Source of the DNA: an uncultured archaeon
Lineage (GTDB): Archaea; Asgardarchaeota; Lokiarchaeia; Sigyniarchaeales; SOKP01
Reading direction: 5' to 3'
NCBI GenBank assembly: GCA_964629395.1
Contig: CAZVTX010000003.1
Span: 1 to 32,157, forward strand
DNA: 32,157 nucleotides
The notes under the pieces were generated by a model, which ran no database searches, was not told where the DNA came from, and worked only from the letters and a program-made list of their open reading frames with translations. The stretch's first letter is position 1. Each line of letters starts with the position of its first letter. Positions 1,178 through 13,523 of this stretch are shown here, in pieces. Made by a program: the position numbers and the translations under genes.

Positions 1178-1306
1178 GAAGCTTCTAAAAAATTTTGATC
1201 TTAATAAAAATAAATTTAATTAAGAGAAATTTATAATAATAATATTTATAGAATCAAAAAATTGTCATAACAATTATATTTATAGTATTAAAAAAATTGA
1301 TTGCTT

Positions 1307-2842
1307 ATGGATGAACCTGTTCCGGGAACACCGATTATTTTAGATATTGGAAGTGCCTATGCAAAAGTAGGATTTGCAGGTGATCCTAAACCGAGATTCG
1401 TCTTTCCTGTCATCACAGGCACCGAAAAATATAAAGCAGTCATGGCAGATGTGAGCACACGGTCTATATATGTTGGATATGATGCTATGAAAATGCGTGG
1501 TGTATTGAAAGTTAAGTACCCCATTCAAAGGGGTGCAATAATGGATTGGAACGATTATTATGAAATCCTAAATTATATTTTTTATTCATTACTGAGAGTT
1601 GAAGATTTATCTCAGCATCCGGTCTTATATGTTGAACCACCATTTTTTCAGCGTGAAACTAAAGAATATATTGCAAGGGTTCTTTTTGAAACCCATAGAA
1701 TTAAGAGTTTGATGATGGTTCCATCGCCTCTATTATCAATTTTTTCAGTAGGTTTAACAACAGGATTAGTTATTGAGAGTGGTGATGGAACTACTTGGAT
1801 TGTTCCTATTATTAATGGAAGAATATATTATCAAGCGGTTCAAAGGCTTTATTTAGCAGGTATGGATGTAAATCATCATCTAAAAGCAATCTTAATGCGA
1901 GAGGGAATAAGTATTCAATCCTCTGCTTTAGATGAAATTTTAAAAGAAATTAAAGAAAAGAACTGTTATTTTGTTTTAGACCCTCAAAATCCCCCGAAAG
2001 GTTTAGATAATTTTAATTATCCTATGCCTGATGGTACAACTGTAGCAATTCCAAATCATATTTTATATGAAGCACCCGAAGTTATGTTTCAGCCATCTTT
2101 AATTGGAGCTAATACAATGAATATACCCCAAGCCGTAATTTATTGTTTACAAATGATGAGTAATGAGTATTGGAGTGATATGTTATCTCATATTGTTTTA
2201 GCGGGGGGTAATCTTTCTTATAGTGGTTTTGAAGAGCGATTAAAACAGGATTTAAAAAAATTATTACCCCAATTAGGTCCAATACCTAAACCTCAGCCCC
2301 CTCCTGGGGAACAACAAAGTAAACCAAAATTACAAGCAATAGGAGGGAGTCAAAAAACTCAAGACACTTGTCCTAAGTGTGGAAATTATGTAGATCTCTC
2401 AAAAGGACAAGAATTTTGTCCTCACTGTGGTGCGCCAATGAAGGTAGTAGAAATTTCAATAGATTTAGGTGCAACGGATAAAAAACCAAAAAAACGCAAA
2501 TTTGAAGGTAAATGTCCTTTTTGTAAAAAAGAAATTCCTGATAGTAGTTCAATTTTTTGTCCTTATTGCGGGAAAAGTCTTGAAGCATTAGATGTTCCTG
2601 AAATTGATGAAAATATAATTGAACAAGCACCAATTGCTCAAGAATTTGCAGGATTTTATGAAGAAGCTGAAGGGTATGAATTAATTAAATTTTATATCCC
2701 TGAAAACTTACAATTTGCTATTTTTAATGGTGCTTCTATATTAGCAAGTTTACCTTCCTTTCAAAAATTATTTATATCTCAATCGGAATTTCAATCAGAT
2801 CCAAACCTTCTATATAGAGATATTAGTGAAATTTTAGGATAA
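1307..2842 (+). CDS. Actin-family ATPase (Asgard actin/Arp-like) with an internal double zinc-ribbon insert
   Basis: The ORF opens at TTG 1301, and the first ATG is at 1307. It is collinear with eukaryotic actin. ILDIGSAYAKVGFAGDPKPRFVFP aligns with [24 protein letters not shown] (phosphate-1). VIESGDGTTWIVPI aligns with VMDSGDGVTHTVPI (phosphate-2). IVLAGGNLSYSGFEERL aligns with TVLSGGTTMYPGIADRM (adenosine motif). The C-terminal FNGASILASLPSFQKLFISQSEF aligns with [22 protein letters not shown]. Confidence 0.9.
   Translation: MDEPVPGTPIILDIGSAYAKVGFAGDPKPRFVFPVITGTEKYKAVMADVSTRSIYVGYDAMKMRGVLKVKYPIQRGAIMDWNDYYEILNYIFYSLLRVEDLSQHPVLYVEPPFFQRETKEYIARVLFETHRIKSLMMVPSPLLSIFSVGLTTGLVIESGDGTTWIVPIINGRIYYQAVQRLYLAGMDVNHHLKAILMREGISIQSSALDEILKEIKEKNCYFVLDPQNPPKGLDNFNYPMPDGTTVAIPNHILYEAPEVMFQPSLIGANTMNIPQAVIYCLQMMSNEYWSDMLSHIVLAGGNLSYSGFEERLKQDLKKLLPQLGPIPKPQPPPGEQQSKPKLQAIGGSQKTQDTCPKCGNYVDLSKGQEFCPHCGAPMKVVEISIDLGATDKKPKKRKFEGKCPFCKKEIPDSSSIFCPYCGKSLEALDVPEIDENIIEQAPIAQEFAGFYEEAEGYELIKFYIPENLQFAIFNGASILASLPSFQKLFISQSEFQSDPNLLYRDISEILG
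2276..2680 (+). other. Insert within the actin-fold CDS: Pro/Gln/Lys-rich linker plus two CPxCG...CPxCG zinc ribbons
   Basis: PIPKPQPPPGEQQSKPK, then CPKCGNYVDLSKGQEFCPHCG, then KKPKKRKFEG, then CPFCKKEIPDSSSIFCPYCG (Cys codons span 2369..2569). It sits between the segments that align to actin ...ITALAPSTM and KIKIIAPPERKY. Confidence 0.8.
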
Positions 2843-7852: not shown

Positions 7853-8524
7853 TCAGATCCGTTCCTTTATTTTGGCAATTATAAATGGAATCTCTTCAAT
7901 TTCTTTTTTGTAGTTCATTTTTAAATCGGGGATTCCCTCAGATATATTCTTAATAGATTCAAAAGTATATATTAAGTTTTCTAAATAATCAATTAAATCA
8001 CCTTTGAATATGACAATTTTATAATTTTCTCTTAAATAATAAGATATATCTGAAATTGAAAATCCCTCATTTGTTCTTAAATGAAATATAAGTCTTTCGA
8101 GGTTTATTCTACCACATTCACAAAAAGGATTATCCTTACAATTACAATTAAATATATCATTTGTCCATTTAAGAACCATGTCAATAAAATTCTTTGAAAA
8201 TTTTTTACGCTTTCTTACATATTCAGCATTCATTAAAGATAATACACTTGCACTGAAAAAATTATTAGAAAAATATTTCATATTTGTATTTCTTGAGAGA
8301 TCTGCAACAATTTCTTTAGAAATATAAACATTTTTTAATGGTTTTAAGTCAAGAGCTATTTCTAAAATAGATTTCTCTTTAGCTCTTAATTCGGATATAA
8401 GTTCTAAACTCTCATCTACAGTTAGAAAAGATTTAGCTATAGACCTTCCCAATTCCGTTATGATAATGTCTCCATTTTTTAGATTATCGATTAATTTTAA
8501 ATTTTTTAATTTAATTGAATACAT
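7853..8524 (-). CDS. Helicase-associated protein (possible detached C-terminal module of the upstream SF2 helicase) with a Cys cluster
   Basis: 223 aa. Its start overlaps the stop of the helicase gene by 14 nt (8511..8524), suggesting translational coupling. It contains CNCKDNPFCECG. The N-terminal part looks wHTH-like (IITELGRSIAKSFL). Confidence 0.6.
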   Translation of the reverse strand: MYSIKLKNLKLIDNLKNGDIIITELGRSIAKSFLTVDESLELISELRAKEKSILEIALDLKPLKNVYISKEIVADLSRNTNMKYFSNNFFSASVLSLMNAEYVRKRKKFSKNFIDMVLKWTNDIFNCNCKDNPFCECGRINLERLIFHLRTNEGFSISDISYYLRENYKIVIFKGDLIDYLENLIYTFESIKNISEGIPDLKMNYKKEIEEIPFIIAKIKERI

Positions 8525-10475
8525 CAGATTGATTTATTCCATTATCATACATCGAAATAAATGCTAATAATTCGGTCAGCGATTTGTTCTCATCAGGAGG
8601 GTGCTCAAAATCCTTTATTTTTCCGTTTAAAAGCTTGATTGCAATATTTTCCTCTGAAATCTTCATTTTAGGAGAATATATTTTACCGGGTTCAACTAAA
8701 AGATATGCTAAACCTTTTGTATGCTTTCTTAAACGTCCTGCGCGACCTAACATTTGTTCAAATTCTGCTACGGTTAACCAATTAATTCCCATAGCTAATG
8801 ATTCAAATATAACTTGACTTGCAGGAAAATCTACACCTGCCGCCAAAGCCGCAGTTGCTACAACTGCGGACAATTTTTGCTCTTGGAATTCCTGTTCAAT
8901 TACTTTTCTTTCATCCAAGGTTAACCCTGAATGATATGCTTTAACGCTAAGACCTTTATTTTGCAAATATAACGCTAAATTTTCGCATTTTTTACGGGAA
9001 TTTGTAAAAACGATCGATTGTCCCCGAAAGCCAAACTCAGATTTAATATAAAAAGCGGATCTAATTAAATTTACGATATAATTTTGTTTTATTCTCTCAT
9101 TTTTACATAAAATTAAATGCCTTTCAATAGGAACAGGTCTATTAGTATATTTTATAAGCTTACATCCTAATTTTCTAGCTAAAGTCCCAGGCTCTCCCAA
9201 AGTTGCACTTAAATATATATATTGAGCATCAGGATAAATCGATTTTAATCGAGCGATGAAGCCATCTAAAATGAATCCTCTATCCTTATCTATTAATGTT
9301 TGAATCTCATCGATAACAATCGTTTTTATCTTTCCTAAAAATGTATATTTACCATTTCTCAGGATATAATCAATTGCCTCATATGTTCCTATTATAATTT
9401 CAGCATTCATTAAATCTTCTAAATTATCTATATTGTTTTTCTCTAATAGTGATTCTCCTATTTTTTTAACTATATTTAAATTTAGAATTGAATATCTTTT
9501 TTCAAATTCTTCTGTTCTTAAATTTGCTAAGGCTACTATCGGAACTACATATAACATACGATCATTTCTATTTTTAAGGAGTTTAGAAACTCCCGCAAGT
9601 TCACCAATTAAAGTTTTACCTCCAGAAGTAGGTGCCATTATTAATTGATTTTCATGGTCTTTCAATAGACCATTCTCTATTGAAATTGCTTGAATAGGTA
9701 AAAGTTTTGAAATATTTACTTTTCTAAAAACTTGTTTAAAACTTTCGGGAATTTCCAAATTTTCAATAGAATAATTTAGATACTTATCGCTAACTTTTGA
9801 TTGTTTCTCTATATCATATAACGTAATATCACGATTTTCTGAAGGTTTAAAATCTGCTTTAAAAACACTAAGAACCTTTTGGACACTTTTAAATTTTAAA
9901 ATCATATGATTAAAAAAATTTTTCAATTTTGGCTTGACTTTATCGCTGTCAATTAGTCCCGTAAGTTGAATTTCCCGAAGCACATAGTCCAGTGCACATT
10001 TAGGACATAATATTCTATTATTTGAGGCTTTTATTTGATTATTCTCATCTAATATCGTGAAAACCTTCTCTTTAAGGCAAAATTCGCAAAAAATAAGATT
10101 AAGGATCTTTTTTTCATTAAATTGAAAATTCTTAAGCATCTCTAAAAGCGGATTAAAATCCTCCTTTTTAACCTTCTTTGAAAAGGAAATAAATTGATTT
10201 TGTTCTGATAAAATTAATTTTTTAAATAAATCTGGATTTAAAGGCTTTTCACTTCCATCATTTAATATTTTTATAAATTGAAGAGGTCTAAATCTATTCT
10301 TTAAATCTAATCCGATTAGTACCCAACCTCTTAAAAATGGTTTATCAACATACGATAGTGCTGCTTTTTTCTTCTTTAAGGTTTTAATATAAAAGAAATT
10401 CACATTATAAATTATTCCGCTTTTATCGTTCCGTTCACTATCTAAAACTATAAAGAAATTTTTCAATTTGGTCAA
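8511..10475 (-). CDS. Superfamily-2 DEAD/DEAH-box (Ski2/Hel308-like) helicase with an extra roughly 270-aa N-terminal region containing a Zn-ribbon-like pair
   Basis: TTG start; a TAA lies 6 codons upstream in frame. Helicase motifs: I APTSGGKT, Ia PIVALAN, II VIDEIQ, III LSATLG, V ATAALAAGVDFPA, VI QMLGRAGR. The N-terminal region has CEFC...CPKC. Confidence 0.88.
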   Translation of the reverse strand: MTKLKNFFIVLDSERNDKSGIIYNVNFFYIKTLKKKKAALSYVDKPFLRGWVLIGLDLKNRFRPLQFIKILNDGSEKPLNPDLFKKLILSEQNQFISFSKKVKKEDFNPLLEMLKNFQFNEKKILNLIFCEFCLKEKVFTILDENNQIKASNNRILCPKCALDYVLREIQLTGLIDSDKVKPKLKNFFNHMILKFKSVQKVLSVFKADFKPSENRDITLYDIEKQSKVSDKYLNYSIENLEIPESFKQVFRKVNISKLLPIQAISIENGLLKDHENQLIMAPTSGGKTLIGELAGVSKLLKNRNDRMLYVVPIVALANLRTEEFEKRYSILNLNIVKKIGESLLEKNNIDNLEDLMNAEIIIGTYEAIDYILRNGKYTFLGKIKTIVIDEIQTLIDKDRGFILDGFIARLKSIYPDAQYIYLSATLGEPGTLARKLGCKLIKYTNRPVPIERHLILCKNERIKQNYIVNLIRSAFYIKSEFGFRGQSIVFTNSRKKCENLALYLQNKGLSVKAYHSGLTLDERKVIEQEFQEQKLSAVVATAALAAGVDFPASQVIFESLAMGINWLTVAEFEQMLGRAGRLRKHTKGLAYLLVEPGKIYSPKMKISEENIAIKLLNGKIKDFEHPPDENKSLTELLAFISMYDNGINQSDVFN

Positions 10476-10538
10476 GGGAAAGCACTTCCATTACTGAAGC
10501 TTTTTCCAAAATAATAAAATATAATAAGATTTTTAGAA

Positions 10539-10700
10539 TTAAAAACCAAAAACCTGTTTAATTTTATCAAAAACATCTTTAATTTGTCTTAATTTCGTCT
10601 CATCACCTTGATTAAGAAAATGTTCTATCCATTGGGCTAAACCGCCTTGTCTAATCCAATCCAGAAAGTATTGTACCGCTTGTCTATCTGTTTCTGACAT
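10539..10700 (-). CDS. Possible small ORF (53 aa), hypothetical helical protein
   Basis: Below the ORF-track size cut-off. The reverse-strand ATG at 10700..10698 gives MSETDRQAVQYFLDWIRQGGLAQWIEHFLNQGDETKLRQIKDVFDKIKQVFGF*. Its composition is far less AT-biased than the surrounding spacer, and it is divergent from the 10819 gene. Confidence 0.3.
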   Translation of the reverse strand: MSETDRQAVQYFLDWIRQGGLAQWIEHFLNQGDETKLRQIKDVFDKIKQVFGF

Positions 10701-10818
10701 TTTTTTTCATTTAATTTAATTTTATTCTTAAAATTAATTCGTTAAATCTATATAAAAATTTAAATGCTCTATGTATATTTATTTCTTTATACCAATTAAA
10801 AATTTGTATTTCCATATT

Positions 10819-11769
10819 ATGCCAGATGTTTATATTAAAACACCAAATTTAGATTCCATCTTTGAAAAATGGAAAAATCAAGAAGTAAGAAGAAATAAAA
10901 AAAAGATGGAAAAAGAATTTGGTACGAAAGGTGCAGTATTTTCGCTAAATCAAATTAGTGCTGCTGAATTTGTTAAAAATACAAATAAGGAAGCTGCGAT
11001 ATATTTTGCAATCAAAAAATCAACCGCTCCAGCTAAAGGCAGCGAAATAAAGGCAATACCTGCTTCTAAAATAAATAGAGAAGTTTTTTATTCCTTTAAA
11101 GGACAAAAAGTAAATAAAGAAAATTGGAAGGATAAAGAAAAGGTGCCAATTTTTGAATCTATAAAACAAATTCCATGTGATTCATGTAAAGGAAAAGGTT
11201 TTACTCAACAGAAATGTAAATCTTGTAAAGGAACAGGAAAGGTTCAATTGAAAGGAACAGTATTAGTCGGAGAAAACAAAGAAAAAAAAACACACATTTT
11301 TGAGATTCCTTGCGCTGAATGCTATGGAACGGGCAATATACAAGCTAGATGCCGAGAATGCGGGGGTCATAAATATAATTTTCAGTATGAAATCCGTCCC
11401 GTGCCCTTTATTACTGTTGTCACAGGTATCCCCGTATTACATGCAAGCACAAGAAAGTATGAGAAAGAAATAGGAGAAGATCTTCATAAATTAATCAAGG
11501 AGGTAGAAGGCATCAAATTTAAAGATTTCAAAACATTAGAAGCTAAGGCTGAAGCATCATTAGGATATTTCAATAAAAATATAAAAAAAGCAATTTCACT
11601 AGCAAAAAGTGATTATACACAATTTCAAAAAGATAAAAATGCAGAGATAATTACACAAATTCATCTATTCCCGCTGATACAATTGATCTGTACAACAAAA
11701 AGAGGTTCTAATTTTGAGATCTATAGTATTGGCTCGCAAAATGGCTTTATAATTTATTCAACATTTTAA
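10819..11769 (+). CDS. Protein with a DnaJ cysteine-rich (CR)-type zinc-finger module (4x CxxCxG) but no J domain; function unknown
   Basis: ORF track 10771..11769. The first 16 codons are low-complexity, so the ATG at 10819 (MPDVYIKTP) is preferred. The motifs are CDSCKGKG, CKSCKGTG, CAECYGTG and CRECGGHK, arranged as two nested pairs as in the DnaJ CR domain. Confidence 0.7.
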   Translation: MPDVYIKTPNLDSIFEKWKNQEVRRNKKKMEKEFGTKGAVFSLNQISAAEFVKNTNKEAAIYFAIKKSTAPAKGSEIKAIPASKINREVFYSFKGQKVNKENWKDKEKVPIFESIKQIPCDSCKGKGFTQQKCKSCKGTGKVQLKGTVLVGENKEKKTHIFEIPCAECYGTGNIQARCRECGGHKYNFQYEIRPVPFITVVTGIPVLHASTRKYEKEIGEDLHKLIKEVEGIKFKDFKTLEAKAEASLGYFNKNIKKAISLAKSDYTQFQKDKNAEIITQIHLFPLIQLICTTKRGSNFEIYSIGSQNGFIIYSTF

Positions 11770-11777
11770 ATTGTAAA

Positions 11778-12827
11778 ATGAAAATTAAAGATTCAATTAA
11801 TCCGAAAAAAACAGAAAATCTAATTATTATTGAGATAATTCTAATCTTTTTTTTCTTATATTATGATCTTTTTTTTGATTTTATTGAAATCGATATTATC
11901 CCTAATTTATTAATCGTCCTTTTAAGTTTTTATATCTTTTTTACGGTAATATATTATATTTTTGAGAAAAAAAAAATTAAAGAATTTGATTTTAATACAG
12001 AATTTTATATTTATTCCCAAGTATTGATTTCTTTATTTCTTGGAATTATTTTATGTGTTTATTTTTTATCAAAAGGAAGTAAAGAAATAAGCTTATTTAT
12101 TATTTCATTAATTCCGTTAGGCTCTATTATTTTTATATTTATTATAAATAAAATATTTTTATTTCAAGCGGAGCGTTTTTTACGTCAACTTTTTAAAGAA
12201 GATATTTGGAATAAACTTGATGAGCAAACAAAAAGAGATTTTAAACAAGCTGAAGCAAGTATAAGAGCTGAGAATATCCCTAATGCTATTCTTAATATTA
12301 GTAGAGGGCTTGAAAGAGAATTAAAATTAACTATATTTCAGCCTTTTAAAATGAAAATTCAAGAAAATAAAGGTAAAAAAGATTATTTTAAGATATTACA
12401 ACCTTTTGAATCTATTATGGATCCAAGATATAGAACATATGAAAATTTTAAACTTTATTTAGAAGGGAAAAGACATCTAACTTTTGGAAATATTCCATTT
12501 TTTCTTTTAAATCTTACCGATAAGAAAATAAATAATTATACCATTTTATTTAAAGAATTTTCGGAATTCTTGAGAAATAAATTTAAAGAAAAATATAAAA
12601 ATATAAATAAAATTTCAAGAATTCTATTCAATCATAATTTTTTTACCGTTCCTGGGATAAAGATTTCAGATTTAAGAAATGAGGCGGCCCACCCACAGAA
12701 AAATATAGAAAATAAAGATCTTCCTAATAGAAGTGCTGAGATCCTTTCAATGGAAAATTATTTACGTTTACTTAAGATTGTGGCTTTTGATCCAAATCTA
12801 CTTAAATTAATTGTTGACTTAAAGTGA
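11778..12827 (+). CDS. Four-TM membrane protein with a C-terminal helical domain carrying an RNxxAH (HEPN-like Rx4H) motif
   Basis: It starts 8 nt after the preceding stop. Four hydrophobic segments lie in residues about 14-125. The soluble domain starts DEQTKRDFKQAEASIRAENIPNAILNISRGLERELKLTIF. It contains SDLRNEAAHPQ (R300..H305, nt 12675..12692), followed by a helix MENYLRLLKIVA. Confidence 0.5.
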   Translation: MKIKDSINPKKTENLIIIEIILIFFFLYYDLFFDFIEIDIIPNLLIVLLSFYIFFTVIYYIFEKKKIKEFDFNTEFYIYSQVLISLFLGIILCVYFLSKGSKEISLFIISLIPLGSIIFIFIINKIFLFQAERFLRQLFKEDIWNKLDEQTKRDFKQAEASIRAENIPNAILNISRGLERELKLTIFQPFKMKIQENKGKKDYFKILQPFESIMDPRYRTYENFKLYLEGKRHLTFGNIPFFLLNLTDKKINNYTILFKEFSEFLRNKFKEKYKNINKISRILFNHNFFTVPGIKISDLRNEAAHPQKNIENKDLPNRSAEILSMENYLRLLKIVAFDPNLLKLIVDLK

Positions 12828-12849
12828 ATTTTTGAAATTAAATCAAAAG

Positions 12850-12899
12850 ATATATAAGTTGAAACTTACTTATAATTATATAAGATTAAACTTATATAT
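12850..12899. repeat. Nested dyad-symmetric element built from TATAAG/CTTATA half-sites, in the spacer upstream of the ECF S-component gene
   Basis: The outer arms ATATATAAGTT (12850..12860) and AACTTATATAT (12889..12899) are perfect reverse complements. Inner palindromes are TAAGTTgaAACTTA (12855..12868) and CTTATAattaTATAAG (12869..12884). A direct ATCAAAA repeat flanks the element at 12842 and 12902. Confidence 0.55.
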
Positions 12900-12908
12900 T
12901 GATCAAAA

Positions 12909-13523
12909 ATGAATGAAAAATTTGATTCAAAAGAAAATAAATTTAAATCTAATTATAAACAATTTTTAGGTTATTTTTTACCGACAAATCCCGTTGTTAT
13001 TTCAATCACCGCAATCTTTGCTGCTTTAACATGTGTTCTTACAATGATAATATCTATTCCAATACCAGCCACGCAAGGTTATATCAATATCGGTGATGCT
13101 GCCGTTATGATAACAGGCTTATTATTTGGACCGATAATAGGCGGATTAGCGGGTGGAATAGGTTCAATGTTAGCGGATATATTTTTAGGATATACAATTT
13201 ATGCTCCAGCAACTCTAATTATAAAAGGATTAGAAGGATTTTTAGTAGGATTTATTTCGGATCCTAAAAATCGGGAGAAATTACATATTAGAGATTTTAT
13301 TGCAGTAATTATTGGTGGAATGGTCATGGTATTGGGATATTTTCTTTATGAGATTATCCTTTGGGGTGTTGAAATCGCTTTAATTGAAGTATTTCTAAAT
13401 GGTATCATTCAATTCGGTTTAGGTGCAACAATCGCAATAATTTTTACCTTAACGGCAAGAAAGAATATTACGGATAGTCTTAATCAAGTATTCGAGAAAG
13501 TATTTGTTGTAAACGATTCATAA
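12909..13523 (+). CDS. ECF-transporter S-component-like integral membrane protein (substrate unknown)
   Basis: 204 aa with about 5-6 TM segments. INIGDAAVMITGLLFGPIIGGLAGGIGSMLADIFLG is typical of ECF substrate-capture subunits. No EcfA/T genes are nearby. Confidence 0.65.
   Translation: MNEKFDSKENKFKSNYKQFLGYFLPTNPVVISITAIFAALTCVLTMIISIPIPATQGYINIGDAAVMITGLLFGPIIGGLAGGIGSMLADIFLGYTIYAPATLIIKGLEGFLVGFISDPKNREKLHIRDFIAVIIGGMVMVLGYFLYEIILWGVEIALIEVFLNGIIQFGLGATIAIIFTLTARKNITDSLNQVFEKVFVVNDS

Follow-up and report, generated by a model that had tools for sequence, protein, structure and literature searches.

A lineage-specific membrane protein with a probable divergent Abi2-like HEPN domain, encoded beside a conserved zinc-finger gene in a Lokiarchaeial genome

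Does a Lokiarchaeial locus in which a DnaJ-like zinc-finger gene is followed almost immediately by a gene for a membrane protein hold a two-gene conflict module, or do two separate genes merely lie side by side? The question is raised by 32,157 nucleotides (nt) of an uncultured archaeon (assembly GCA_964629395.1, contig CAZVTX010000003.1, positions 1 to 32,157; hereafter the window), in which two plus-strand open reading frames (ORFs), 10771..11769 (332 amino acids, aa) and 11778..12827 (349 aa), follow one another with a gap of 8 nt. A sequence-only reading, whose two ORFs and 8-nt separation agree with the ORF list, had taken them for a module consisting of a DnaJ cysteine-rich (CR)-type zinc-finger protein and a protein with four transmembrane (TM) helices and a HEPN-like domain. 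The analysis described here favours two independent genes, zinc-finger and TM, over a conserved module. The TM gene, a lineage-specific accessory gene, is found in a small subclade only; its product is probably an RNA-cutting enzyme anchored in the membrane, with a distant kinship to the bacterial AbiD/AbiF anti-virus proteins.

The C-terminal domain of the TM protein is the part under the strongest constraint. Close homologues fall into only 18 clusters, all at least 48% identical (48-58% across the subclade), and those with a named source are all from Promethearchaeota/Promethearchaeia. Among them the TM part varies and the C-terminal domain is conserved, with ERELK, HLTFGNIPFFLLNLTD and SDLRNEAAHPQ invariant; LRNEAAH itself (residues 299-305, nt 12672..12692) is unchanged in 18 of 18. 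Remote relatives were collected with a domain profile, which at E<=1e-3 retrieved 35 proteins from 1.8 billion representatives; in those of full length (250-1100 aa) the domain is always C-terminal. A further protein search seeded with the remote alignment, its candidates limited by the word index, added almost nothing. In a 23-sequence alignment of relatives 20-27% identical, the sole invariant residues are E179, R300, N301 and H305, and E181, P189, T235 and G237 are near-invariant. The R, N and H of the RNxxAH motif singled out at the outset are conserved in close and distant homologues alike. The HEPN signature comprises an Rx4-6H motif with a polar residue (N, D or H) after the arginine, plus a second conserved acidic residue, often within Ex3[KR] (PMC3710099). 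The first element is present here as R300-N-E-A-A-H305, in which a polar asparagine follows the arginine, and the second as the upstream E179, which is found as ERELK in the Loki clade. A histidine-kinase H-box was also considered for the motif and dropped, as order and spacing do not fit.

The domain family lies outside the models of Pfam, NCBIfam and PADLOC, none of which matches the TM protein of the window or its close homologues. When each family member was scanned against Pfam, the only models to match more than one member were Abi_2, HEPN_RiboL-PSP, HEPN_MAE_28990 and HEPN_Apea, with three members each. Against the Abi_2 model (184 positions), the domain of relative P0144 covers positions 44-180 (E=8.3e-4) and that of another member positions 41-178 (E=0.11); for the domains of P0144 and P0160 the alignment spans nearly the whole model. 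Alignments were also compared directly with hhalign, for which Abi_2 was represented by the AbiF from phage phiC2 of Clostridioides difficile together with ten genes from plasmids that bear the annotation 'Abi family protein'. The invariant residues of that alignment are the E of IExAxRT, the G of LTFG and the R, N and H of VRNxCAH. The domain family (A4) matched it with 74% probability (P=2.8e-5) and a 43-sequence version with 75% (P=2.5e-5). The controls gave 0.2% (P=0.3) for reversed Abi_2, 0.1% (P=0.69) for the zinc-finger alignment and, over 30 column shuffles, a best P of 0.076 with a probability of at most 0.7%. At a relaxed alignment threshold three elements are colinear, E179 with E87, LTFG with LTFG, and R300-N301-H305 with R202-N203-H207. 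The phiC2 AbiF is 99.88% identical to C. difficile AbiFCd (PMC12373285), the R202 and H207 of which structurally align with R210 and H215 of PbAbiF, and PbAbiF carrying both R210A and H215A is inactive, as cited in PMC12373285. At the level of sequence, the HEPN-like reading thus holds through motif invariance, the Pfam HEPN matches of relatives and the hhalign match to Abi_2, and the C-terminal domain is likely to be a divergent Abi2-like HEPN domain.

A number of results weigh against this assignment, and several of them would suit a helical fold unrelated to HEPN in which the E...RNxxAH pattern arose by convergence, for example as a binding site or another catalytic site. Every Pfam HEPN match of the relatives falls under the curated cut-off and several barely exceed the motif; the Abi_2 gathering threshold (25.6) is not reached, the window protein giving no match and the best relative 20.1 bits. 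A 74% hhalign probability counts as moderate, it drops to 39% (P=3e-4) when the Loki clade is left out and only remote members are used, and the confidently aligned hhalign core is 16 columns only. In the structural model the domain is all-helical, with long helices at 37-66 and 127-154 in domain numbering; an insert lies between the two, and helix 166-174 carries the motif. A Foldseek search of this model against PDB and BFVD, with a tool that is weak on all-helical domains, returned nothing at E<1, so that the HEPN-fold match proposed as a check by the sequence-only reading was not obtained. The best HEPN-related rows were 2q00_B (E=1.8) and a Csx1-Crn2 chain (E=8.6), and the solved Abi family protein 8vz6, an AbiF present in the PDB set, was absent from the 53 matches at E<=10. 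The full-length model found only helical or TM noise in PDB. Nevertheless, an unrelated fold would have to account for three separate conserved motifs colinear with Abi_2, for two relatives that align with nearly all of that model, and for an hhalign P-value that none of the shuffled alignments approached. The fusions and neighbourhoods of the relatives, described below, are moreover of the same kinds as those of known HEPN effectors. A non-HEPN fold is therefore considered unlikely, and a divergent Abi2-like HEPN domain is retained as the preferred assignment. Matches to PDB sequences were set aside: designed armadillo repeats, found with the A4 profile at E=1.3e-6, are a repeat-summed artefact ('LRNIASGG' in each repeat, best single stretch with an independent E-value of 0.18), and those found with the A1 and A2 profiles (for example designed TM proteins and colicin E1) are noise.

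The remainder of the protein is a membrane anchor. Hydropathy marks hydrophobic segments at about residues 13-36, 40-64, 78-100 and 104-130, and the full-length AlphaFold model, with a predicted local distance difference test score (pLDDT) of 84, places long helices at 13-32, 41-69, 74-99 and 104-138, followed by the all-helical domain. The four N-terminal TM helices and helical C-terminal domain of the sequence-only reading are thereby supported, the domain measuring 219 aa (residues 131-349). Loop charges of +3 at the N-terminus and -3 in the first loop suggest an N-in/C-in topology with the C-terminal domain facing the cytoplasm. The best conserved stretch of this variable membrane region is GFQNxFYxFSQ..F..FLG at the start of TM3 (12003..12044, residues 76-89), in which F76, Q81, F87 and G89 never vary; this stretch may serve in sensing or in oligomerisation. 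The coordinates of this and the other features are collected in the Table.

Table. Positions in the window of the features discussed, with the evidence for each (pTM, predicted template modelling score)
Feature	Position	Strand	Evidence
Gene for 349-aa membrane protein	11778..12827	+	4-TM N-terminal anchor and putative C-terminal Abi2-like HEPN-type domain
Four predicted TM helices, residues ~13-130	11814..12167	+	hydropathy; helices in model
C-terminal all-helical domain, residues 131-349	12168..12824	+	model pLDDT 93.8, pTM 0.90; 35 remote relatives; hhalign match to Abi_2
ERELK motif (Ex3K), E179	12312..12326	+	E179 invariant family-wide; aligns with invariant E87 of Abi_2
HLTFGN motif	12474..12491	+	T235 and G237 near-invariant; aligns with Abi_2 LTFG, whose G162 is invariant
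RNEAAH, Rx4H motif, predicted catalytic site	12675..12692	+	R300, N301 and H305 invariant; align with R202/N203/H207 of phiC2 AbiF
Zinc-finger protein gene	10819..11769 (longest ORF from 10771)	+	316 aa from M17; relatives in at least 119 species genomes
DnaJ-CR-type zinc-finger insert	11176..11373	+	CDSCKGKG, CKSCKGTG, CAECYGTG, CRECGGHK (regular expression)
Conserved 53-aa gene (MSETDRQAVQYFLDWIRQGG...)	10539..10700	-	tblastn match in 84/84 zinc-finger loci, 51-81% identity; transcribed divergently from zinc-finger gene
Double palindrome TATAAGTT-N-AACTTATA, two copies	12850..12899	.	fold z=-3.98; recurs upstream of ECF S-component gene

The distant relatives carry the domain in a variety of fusions. 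Their N-terminal partners include a retron-type reverse transcriptase (RT; PADLOC RT_III-A, 2.8e-82), a type I restriction R subunit, ABC ATPases resembling DndD, PbeC and PtuA, a receiver domain, tetratricopeptide repeats (TPRs), another multi-TM region and coiled coils. The TPR fusion is from a Lokiarchaeote, and the fusions to the retron-type RT, the ABC-type ATPases and the receiver domain are in metagenomic proteins. The R-subunit fusion belongs to an hsdM-hsdS-hsdR operon of a Heimdallarchaeota metagenome-assembled genome (MDVR01000143.1; locus L100, 1653-9294), where the genes for HsdM, HsdS, HSDR_N and the R subunit with its C-terminal Abi2-like domain lie between a TniQ-like gene and a phage-type integrase. 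Relative P0145 (L102, 1-11296, on a 2.25-Mb ENA contig) is encoded between two Mu-transposase/IstB pairs, in the company of Peptidase_S8, Trypco2, a Toprim primase-like gene and RadC; this region looks like the cargo of a composite mobile element. The positions and neighbourhoods of the relatives are typical of conflict-system effector domains. A scan of viral contigs found no relatives, tblastn of a remote domain against plasmids gave no match, and a metagenome scan returned 4 loci only.

The relationship between the two genes was assessed by their distribution. A scan of species-representative genomes identified at least 119 with a relative of the zinc-finger protein; in none of the 80 loci kept is a TM gene found within 5 kb. 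Viewed from the TM gene, nine loci are informative (here designated by L numbers). In six (the window, L001, L087, L088, L104 and L105) the zinc-finger gene lies directly upstream, in L085 an opposite-strand gene separates the two, and in L086 and L106 the TM gene adjoins the 53-aa gene and the zinc-finger gene is absent there. The co-occurrence expected of a two-gene module is accordingly not observed. It could still be argued that within the subclade the pair is a real module, such as a toxin with its antitoxin or chaperone, with the zinc-finger protein regulating the membrane HEPN protein or helping it to fold. The arrangement in the six loci is on the same strand, L088 keeps the pair although its upstream helicase and 53-aa genes have been replaced, and the two genes are probably co-transcribed in the window because the spacer is only 8 nt. 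However, the spacers of L001, L087 and L088 measure 43 to ~130 nt, leaving room for a separate promoter, and the adjacency is also what one insertion event in a syntenic region would produce. The zinc-finger protein, furthermore, does without the TM gene in 80 of 80 species loci at ~60% identity throughout, and the TM gene does without its supposed partner in L086 and L106 and is parted from it in L085. A subclade-specific module is thus quite improbable. The content of the slot 3' of the zinc-finger gene differs between genomes, and the TM gene was probably inserted once in this variable slot, between the zinc-finger gene and the gene for an energy-coupling factor (ECF) transporter component, with vertical descent thereafter.

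What might the TM protein do? Taken as a whole, the reading of two independent genes, one of which encodes a lineage-specific, membrane-anchored, divergent Abi2 (AbiD/AbiF)-like HEPN protein working by the mechanism of established HEPN ribonucleases (RNases), is somewhat likely to be correct. We infer each element of the scheme that follows, namely the RNase activity, dimerisation, topology, trigger and biological role of the TM protein. The four TM helices would anchor, and perhaps gate, a cytoplasm-facing domain that dimerises, and R300, N301 and H305, with the help of E179, would form a metal-independent endoribonuclease site; the dimer and the metal-free cleavage are proposed because they belong to established HEPN biochemistry (PMC3710099). 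This site would cut cytoplasmic RNA at the membrane. It would probably be kept inactive until a signal linked to the membrane or envelope, such as viral attack or stress, releases it, and cells would then stop growing or degrade RNA locally, as happens with single-protein effectors of abortive infection.

Whether such an enzyme would serve in conflict or in regulation is a separate matter. A conflict role is favoured by the narrow distribution, the low guanine-plus-cytosine (GC) content, the variable slot and the defence-type relatives. The TM gene has a GC content of 22.3% (TM part 16.7%, domain 25.6%), the zinc-finger gene of 31.1% and the window of 29.0%. The alternative is a HEPN RNase without a part in defence, a housekeeping or regulatory membrane-associated enzyme of RNA processing or decay peculiar to the subclade. 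The stable syntenic position and the neighbouring genes favour such a regulatory role: the window also encodes a tetrahydrofolate (THF) dehydrogenase, a DRG-type GTPase, a helicase, an ECF S component, a PALP enzyme, GDPD and a P-type ATPase, in an order mostly common to other Lokiarchaeia. The link to defence islands that was to be checked did not emerge, the surroundings being housekeeping and metabolic genes with no enrichment of defence or mobility genes around the TM gene in the window. These neighbours, and the apparent vertical inheritance in the subclade, count against a conflict role in so far as they fit a regulatory or housekeeping RNase equally well. An identity of 48-58% suggests that this inheritance has been long, no copies were found on viral contigs, and stimulus-dependent degradation of RNA is a role already proposed for membrane-associated HEPN proteins (PMC3710099). 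On the other hand, a housekeeping function sits uneasily with a gene restricted to 18 clusters and absent from 80 species loci, of lower GC than its surroundings, in a slot whose content varies between genomes, and with distant relatives in defence or mobile contexts. The housekeeping alternative is possible but doubtful, and a lineage-specific accessory protein with an Abi2-like HEPN domain remains the preferred reading.

The flanks of the pair had been described as long AT-rich spacers, consistent with an autonomous unit. The upstream spacer, 10476..10770, proves not to be empty, as it contains the conserved minus-strand 53-aa gene. Downstream, the dyad reported within 12828..12908 does exist, with two 19-nt arms (12850-12868 and 12881-12899), but it does not bound an autonomous unit. 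A double palindrome of the form TATAAGTT-N2-4-AACTTATA is found 10-40 nt 5' of the gene for the ECF riboflavin-type S component in many Lokiarchaeial loci (L001, L003, L009, L016, L019, L024, L034, L040, L044, L061, L065, L067, L073 and L086), regardless of the preceding gene and including loci without the TM gene. Since it recurs before the ECF gene whatever lies upstream, the palindrome is assigned to the transporter gene, of which it is an operator- or promoter-like element and probably the operator of an unknown regulator. With a 53-aa gene in one flank and an ECF-linked dyad in the other, the flanks therefore mark no autonomous unit.

The zinc-finger gene, on its own account, is part of a strongly conserved arrangement. 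Its start is probably M17 (nt 10819), because homologues measure 316-320 aa and their alignment begins at MPDV. Four exact CxxCxGxG motifs had been claimed; three are exact, and the fourth, CRECGGHK, is not. The Pfam DnaJ_CXXCXGXG model matches with E=3.7e-6 and 27.5 bits, under its cut-off of 32.7, and a profile of 31 homologues matched, among PDB sequences, the zinc-finger regions of Ydj1/MAS5 (1nlt_A, E=1.1e-4) and DNAJA2 and nothing else. The Pfam scan found no J domain, glycine/phenylalanine (G/F) region or recognisable DnaJ C-terminal domains, so that a DnaJ-CR-type finger without a J domain is borne out, as is the unrecognisable character of its surroundings: the 120-aa N-terminal and 130-aa C-terminal flanks match nothing known. 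The likeness to the DnaJ/Ydj1 cysteine-rich domain consists of four cysteine motifs at DnaJ-type spacing. In contrast to DnaJ, the protein lacks a J domain, its fourth motif is CxxCxGxK and its finger scores under the Pfam cut-off; it thus possesses a DnaJ-type finger and is not a DnaJ. The eight cysteines, together with many residues outside the finger, are invariant in the 31 homologues, and about 60% identity is maintained over >120 clusters. The source-named homologues of both proteins are all labelled Promethearchaeota/Promethearchaeia or another Asgard group. Judged on its sequence, the zinc-finger protein is a core Lokiarchaeial protein in which a DnaJ-CR-type finger is inserted in an otherwise unknown fold.

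Its genomic links, unlike those of DnaJ, are not with chaperone genes. They are with the 53-aa gene, which is also called as a gene in L001, L002 and L003, and with a DUF5814 helicase, present in 80 of the 84 zinc-finger loci. The 53-aa protein has no Pfam match at cut-off (weak ADDT and DALR_2 rows only) and no PDB sequence relative. The typical Lokiarchaeial order is THF dehydrogenase, a 151-aa gene, DRG-type GTPase, helicase (-), 53-aa gene (-), zinc finger (+), ECF S component and PALP (-). Zinc-finger gene, 53-aa gene and DUF5814 helicase thus form a strongly conserved Lokiarchaeial cluster of unknown function, which may be a more interesting target for cell biology than the TM gene.

Three further observations concern this neighbourhood. 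In the window the DEAD/Helicase_C/DUF5814 helicase is represented by two overlapping minus-strand ORFs, 8511..10475 and 7853..8524 (654 aa and 223 aa, respectively), whereas in relatives it is one protein of ~888 aa; the split could stem from a frameshift or a sequencing error, or mark a pseudogene. A Glyco_hydro_4 gene stands directly 3' of the TM gene in four relatives (L085 2962-4458, L086 7080-8576, L087 6202-7698 and L088 6131-7600), and is not present after the TM gene in the window or in L001. Further upstream, 1301..2842 (+) encodes an actin-family protein (Pfam Actin, 8.8e-71) with a C-terminal double zinc-ribbon extension.

If the C-terminal domain proves to be an active RNase, the TM protein and its relatives would add an Abi2-like HEPN effector family that goes undetected by Pfam, NCBIfam and PADLOC. 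A profile for it would improve the annotation of archaeal defence systems, because the family occurs in Asgard archaea and in RT, ATPase and receiver fusions. The 4-TM version would also offer a compact test case for the control of a HEPN nuclease by membrane tethering.

Among known systems, the nearest are the AbiD, AbiD1 and AbiF proteins (Abi_2, PF07751), HEPN RNases of abortive infection or of type III toxin-antitoxin systems. They share with the TM-protein domain an all-helical make-up and, in colinear order, an early-helix acidic residue (IExAxRT in Abi_2, lEREl here), LTFG and RNxxAH. They differ in possessing an N-terminal region with YYR and LYxFD motifs, in place of which four TM helices are found here, and in residing on plasmids and prophages, whereas the TM protein is archaeal and encoded in a core chromosomal region. 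Two points at the RNA level speak against too close a parallel: the abiF RNA motif (RF03085) gave no match at E<=10 in 10400..13000, and only 8 nt between the TM gene and the upstream ORF are available for an AbiF-type RNA antitoxin. Over the whole window no Rfam family reached its gathering score, and weak snoRNA and psbA rows (E>0.4) were taken as chance. Abi2 domains are also known to be embedded in or fused to restriction-modification systems (PMC3710099), like relatives of the TM-protein domain.

A second comparison is with bacterial membrane-associated HEPN proteins, which include HEPN domains of the Abi2 and Swt1 families joined to a TM helix (Anantharaman et al. 2013, PMC3710099) and for which stimulus-dependent RNA degradation at the inner membrane face has been proposed (PMC3710099). 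In common with these, the Lokiarchaeial protein would tether a catalytically intact, predicted cytoplasmic HEPN domain to the membrane. The bacterial proteins, however, have one or two TM helices and extra N-terminal helical or Zn-ribbon domains, whereas the Lokiarchaeial protein has four TM helices, no extracytoplasmic domain and a more divergent HEPN-type domain. Eukaryotic Ire1, with its KEN domain, and C6orf70/ERMARD (DUF4209) invite a third comparison, by analogy only, through the architecture of a membrane anchor with a cytosolic HEPN RNase and through the Asgard host. The TM protein has neither the kinase nor the lumenal sensor domain, its nearest family is the prokaryotic Abi_2, and no KEN or DUF4209 signal appeared in any Pfam scan of it or its relatives. 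A far-reaching extension, to which very little credence can be given, would make it an Asgard membrane HEPN RNase whose conserved 4-TM module detects a signal from membrane or envelope and sets off local RNA decay, a functional counterpart and possibly an evolutionary forerunner of Ire1/ERMARD, and a representative of a new effector family common to retron-type RTs, type I restriction enzymes and ABC-ATPase systems. Set beside the membrane-associated HEPN proteins that computational work has already described in bacteria, what is new here is the archaeal host, the four TM helices, the lack of an AbiF RNA and a domain family that lies outside current models.

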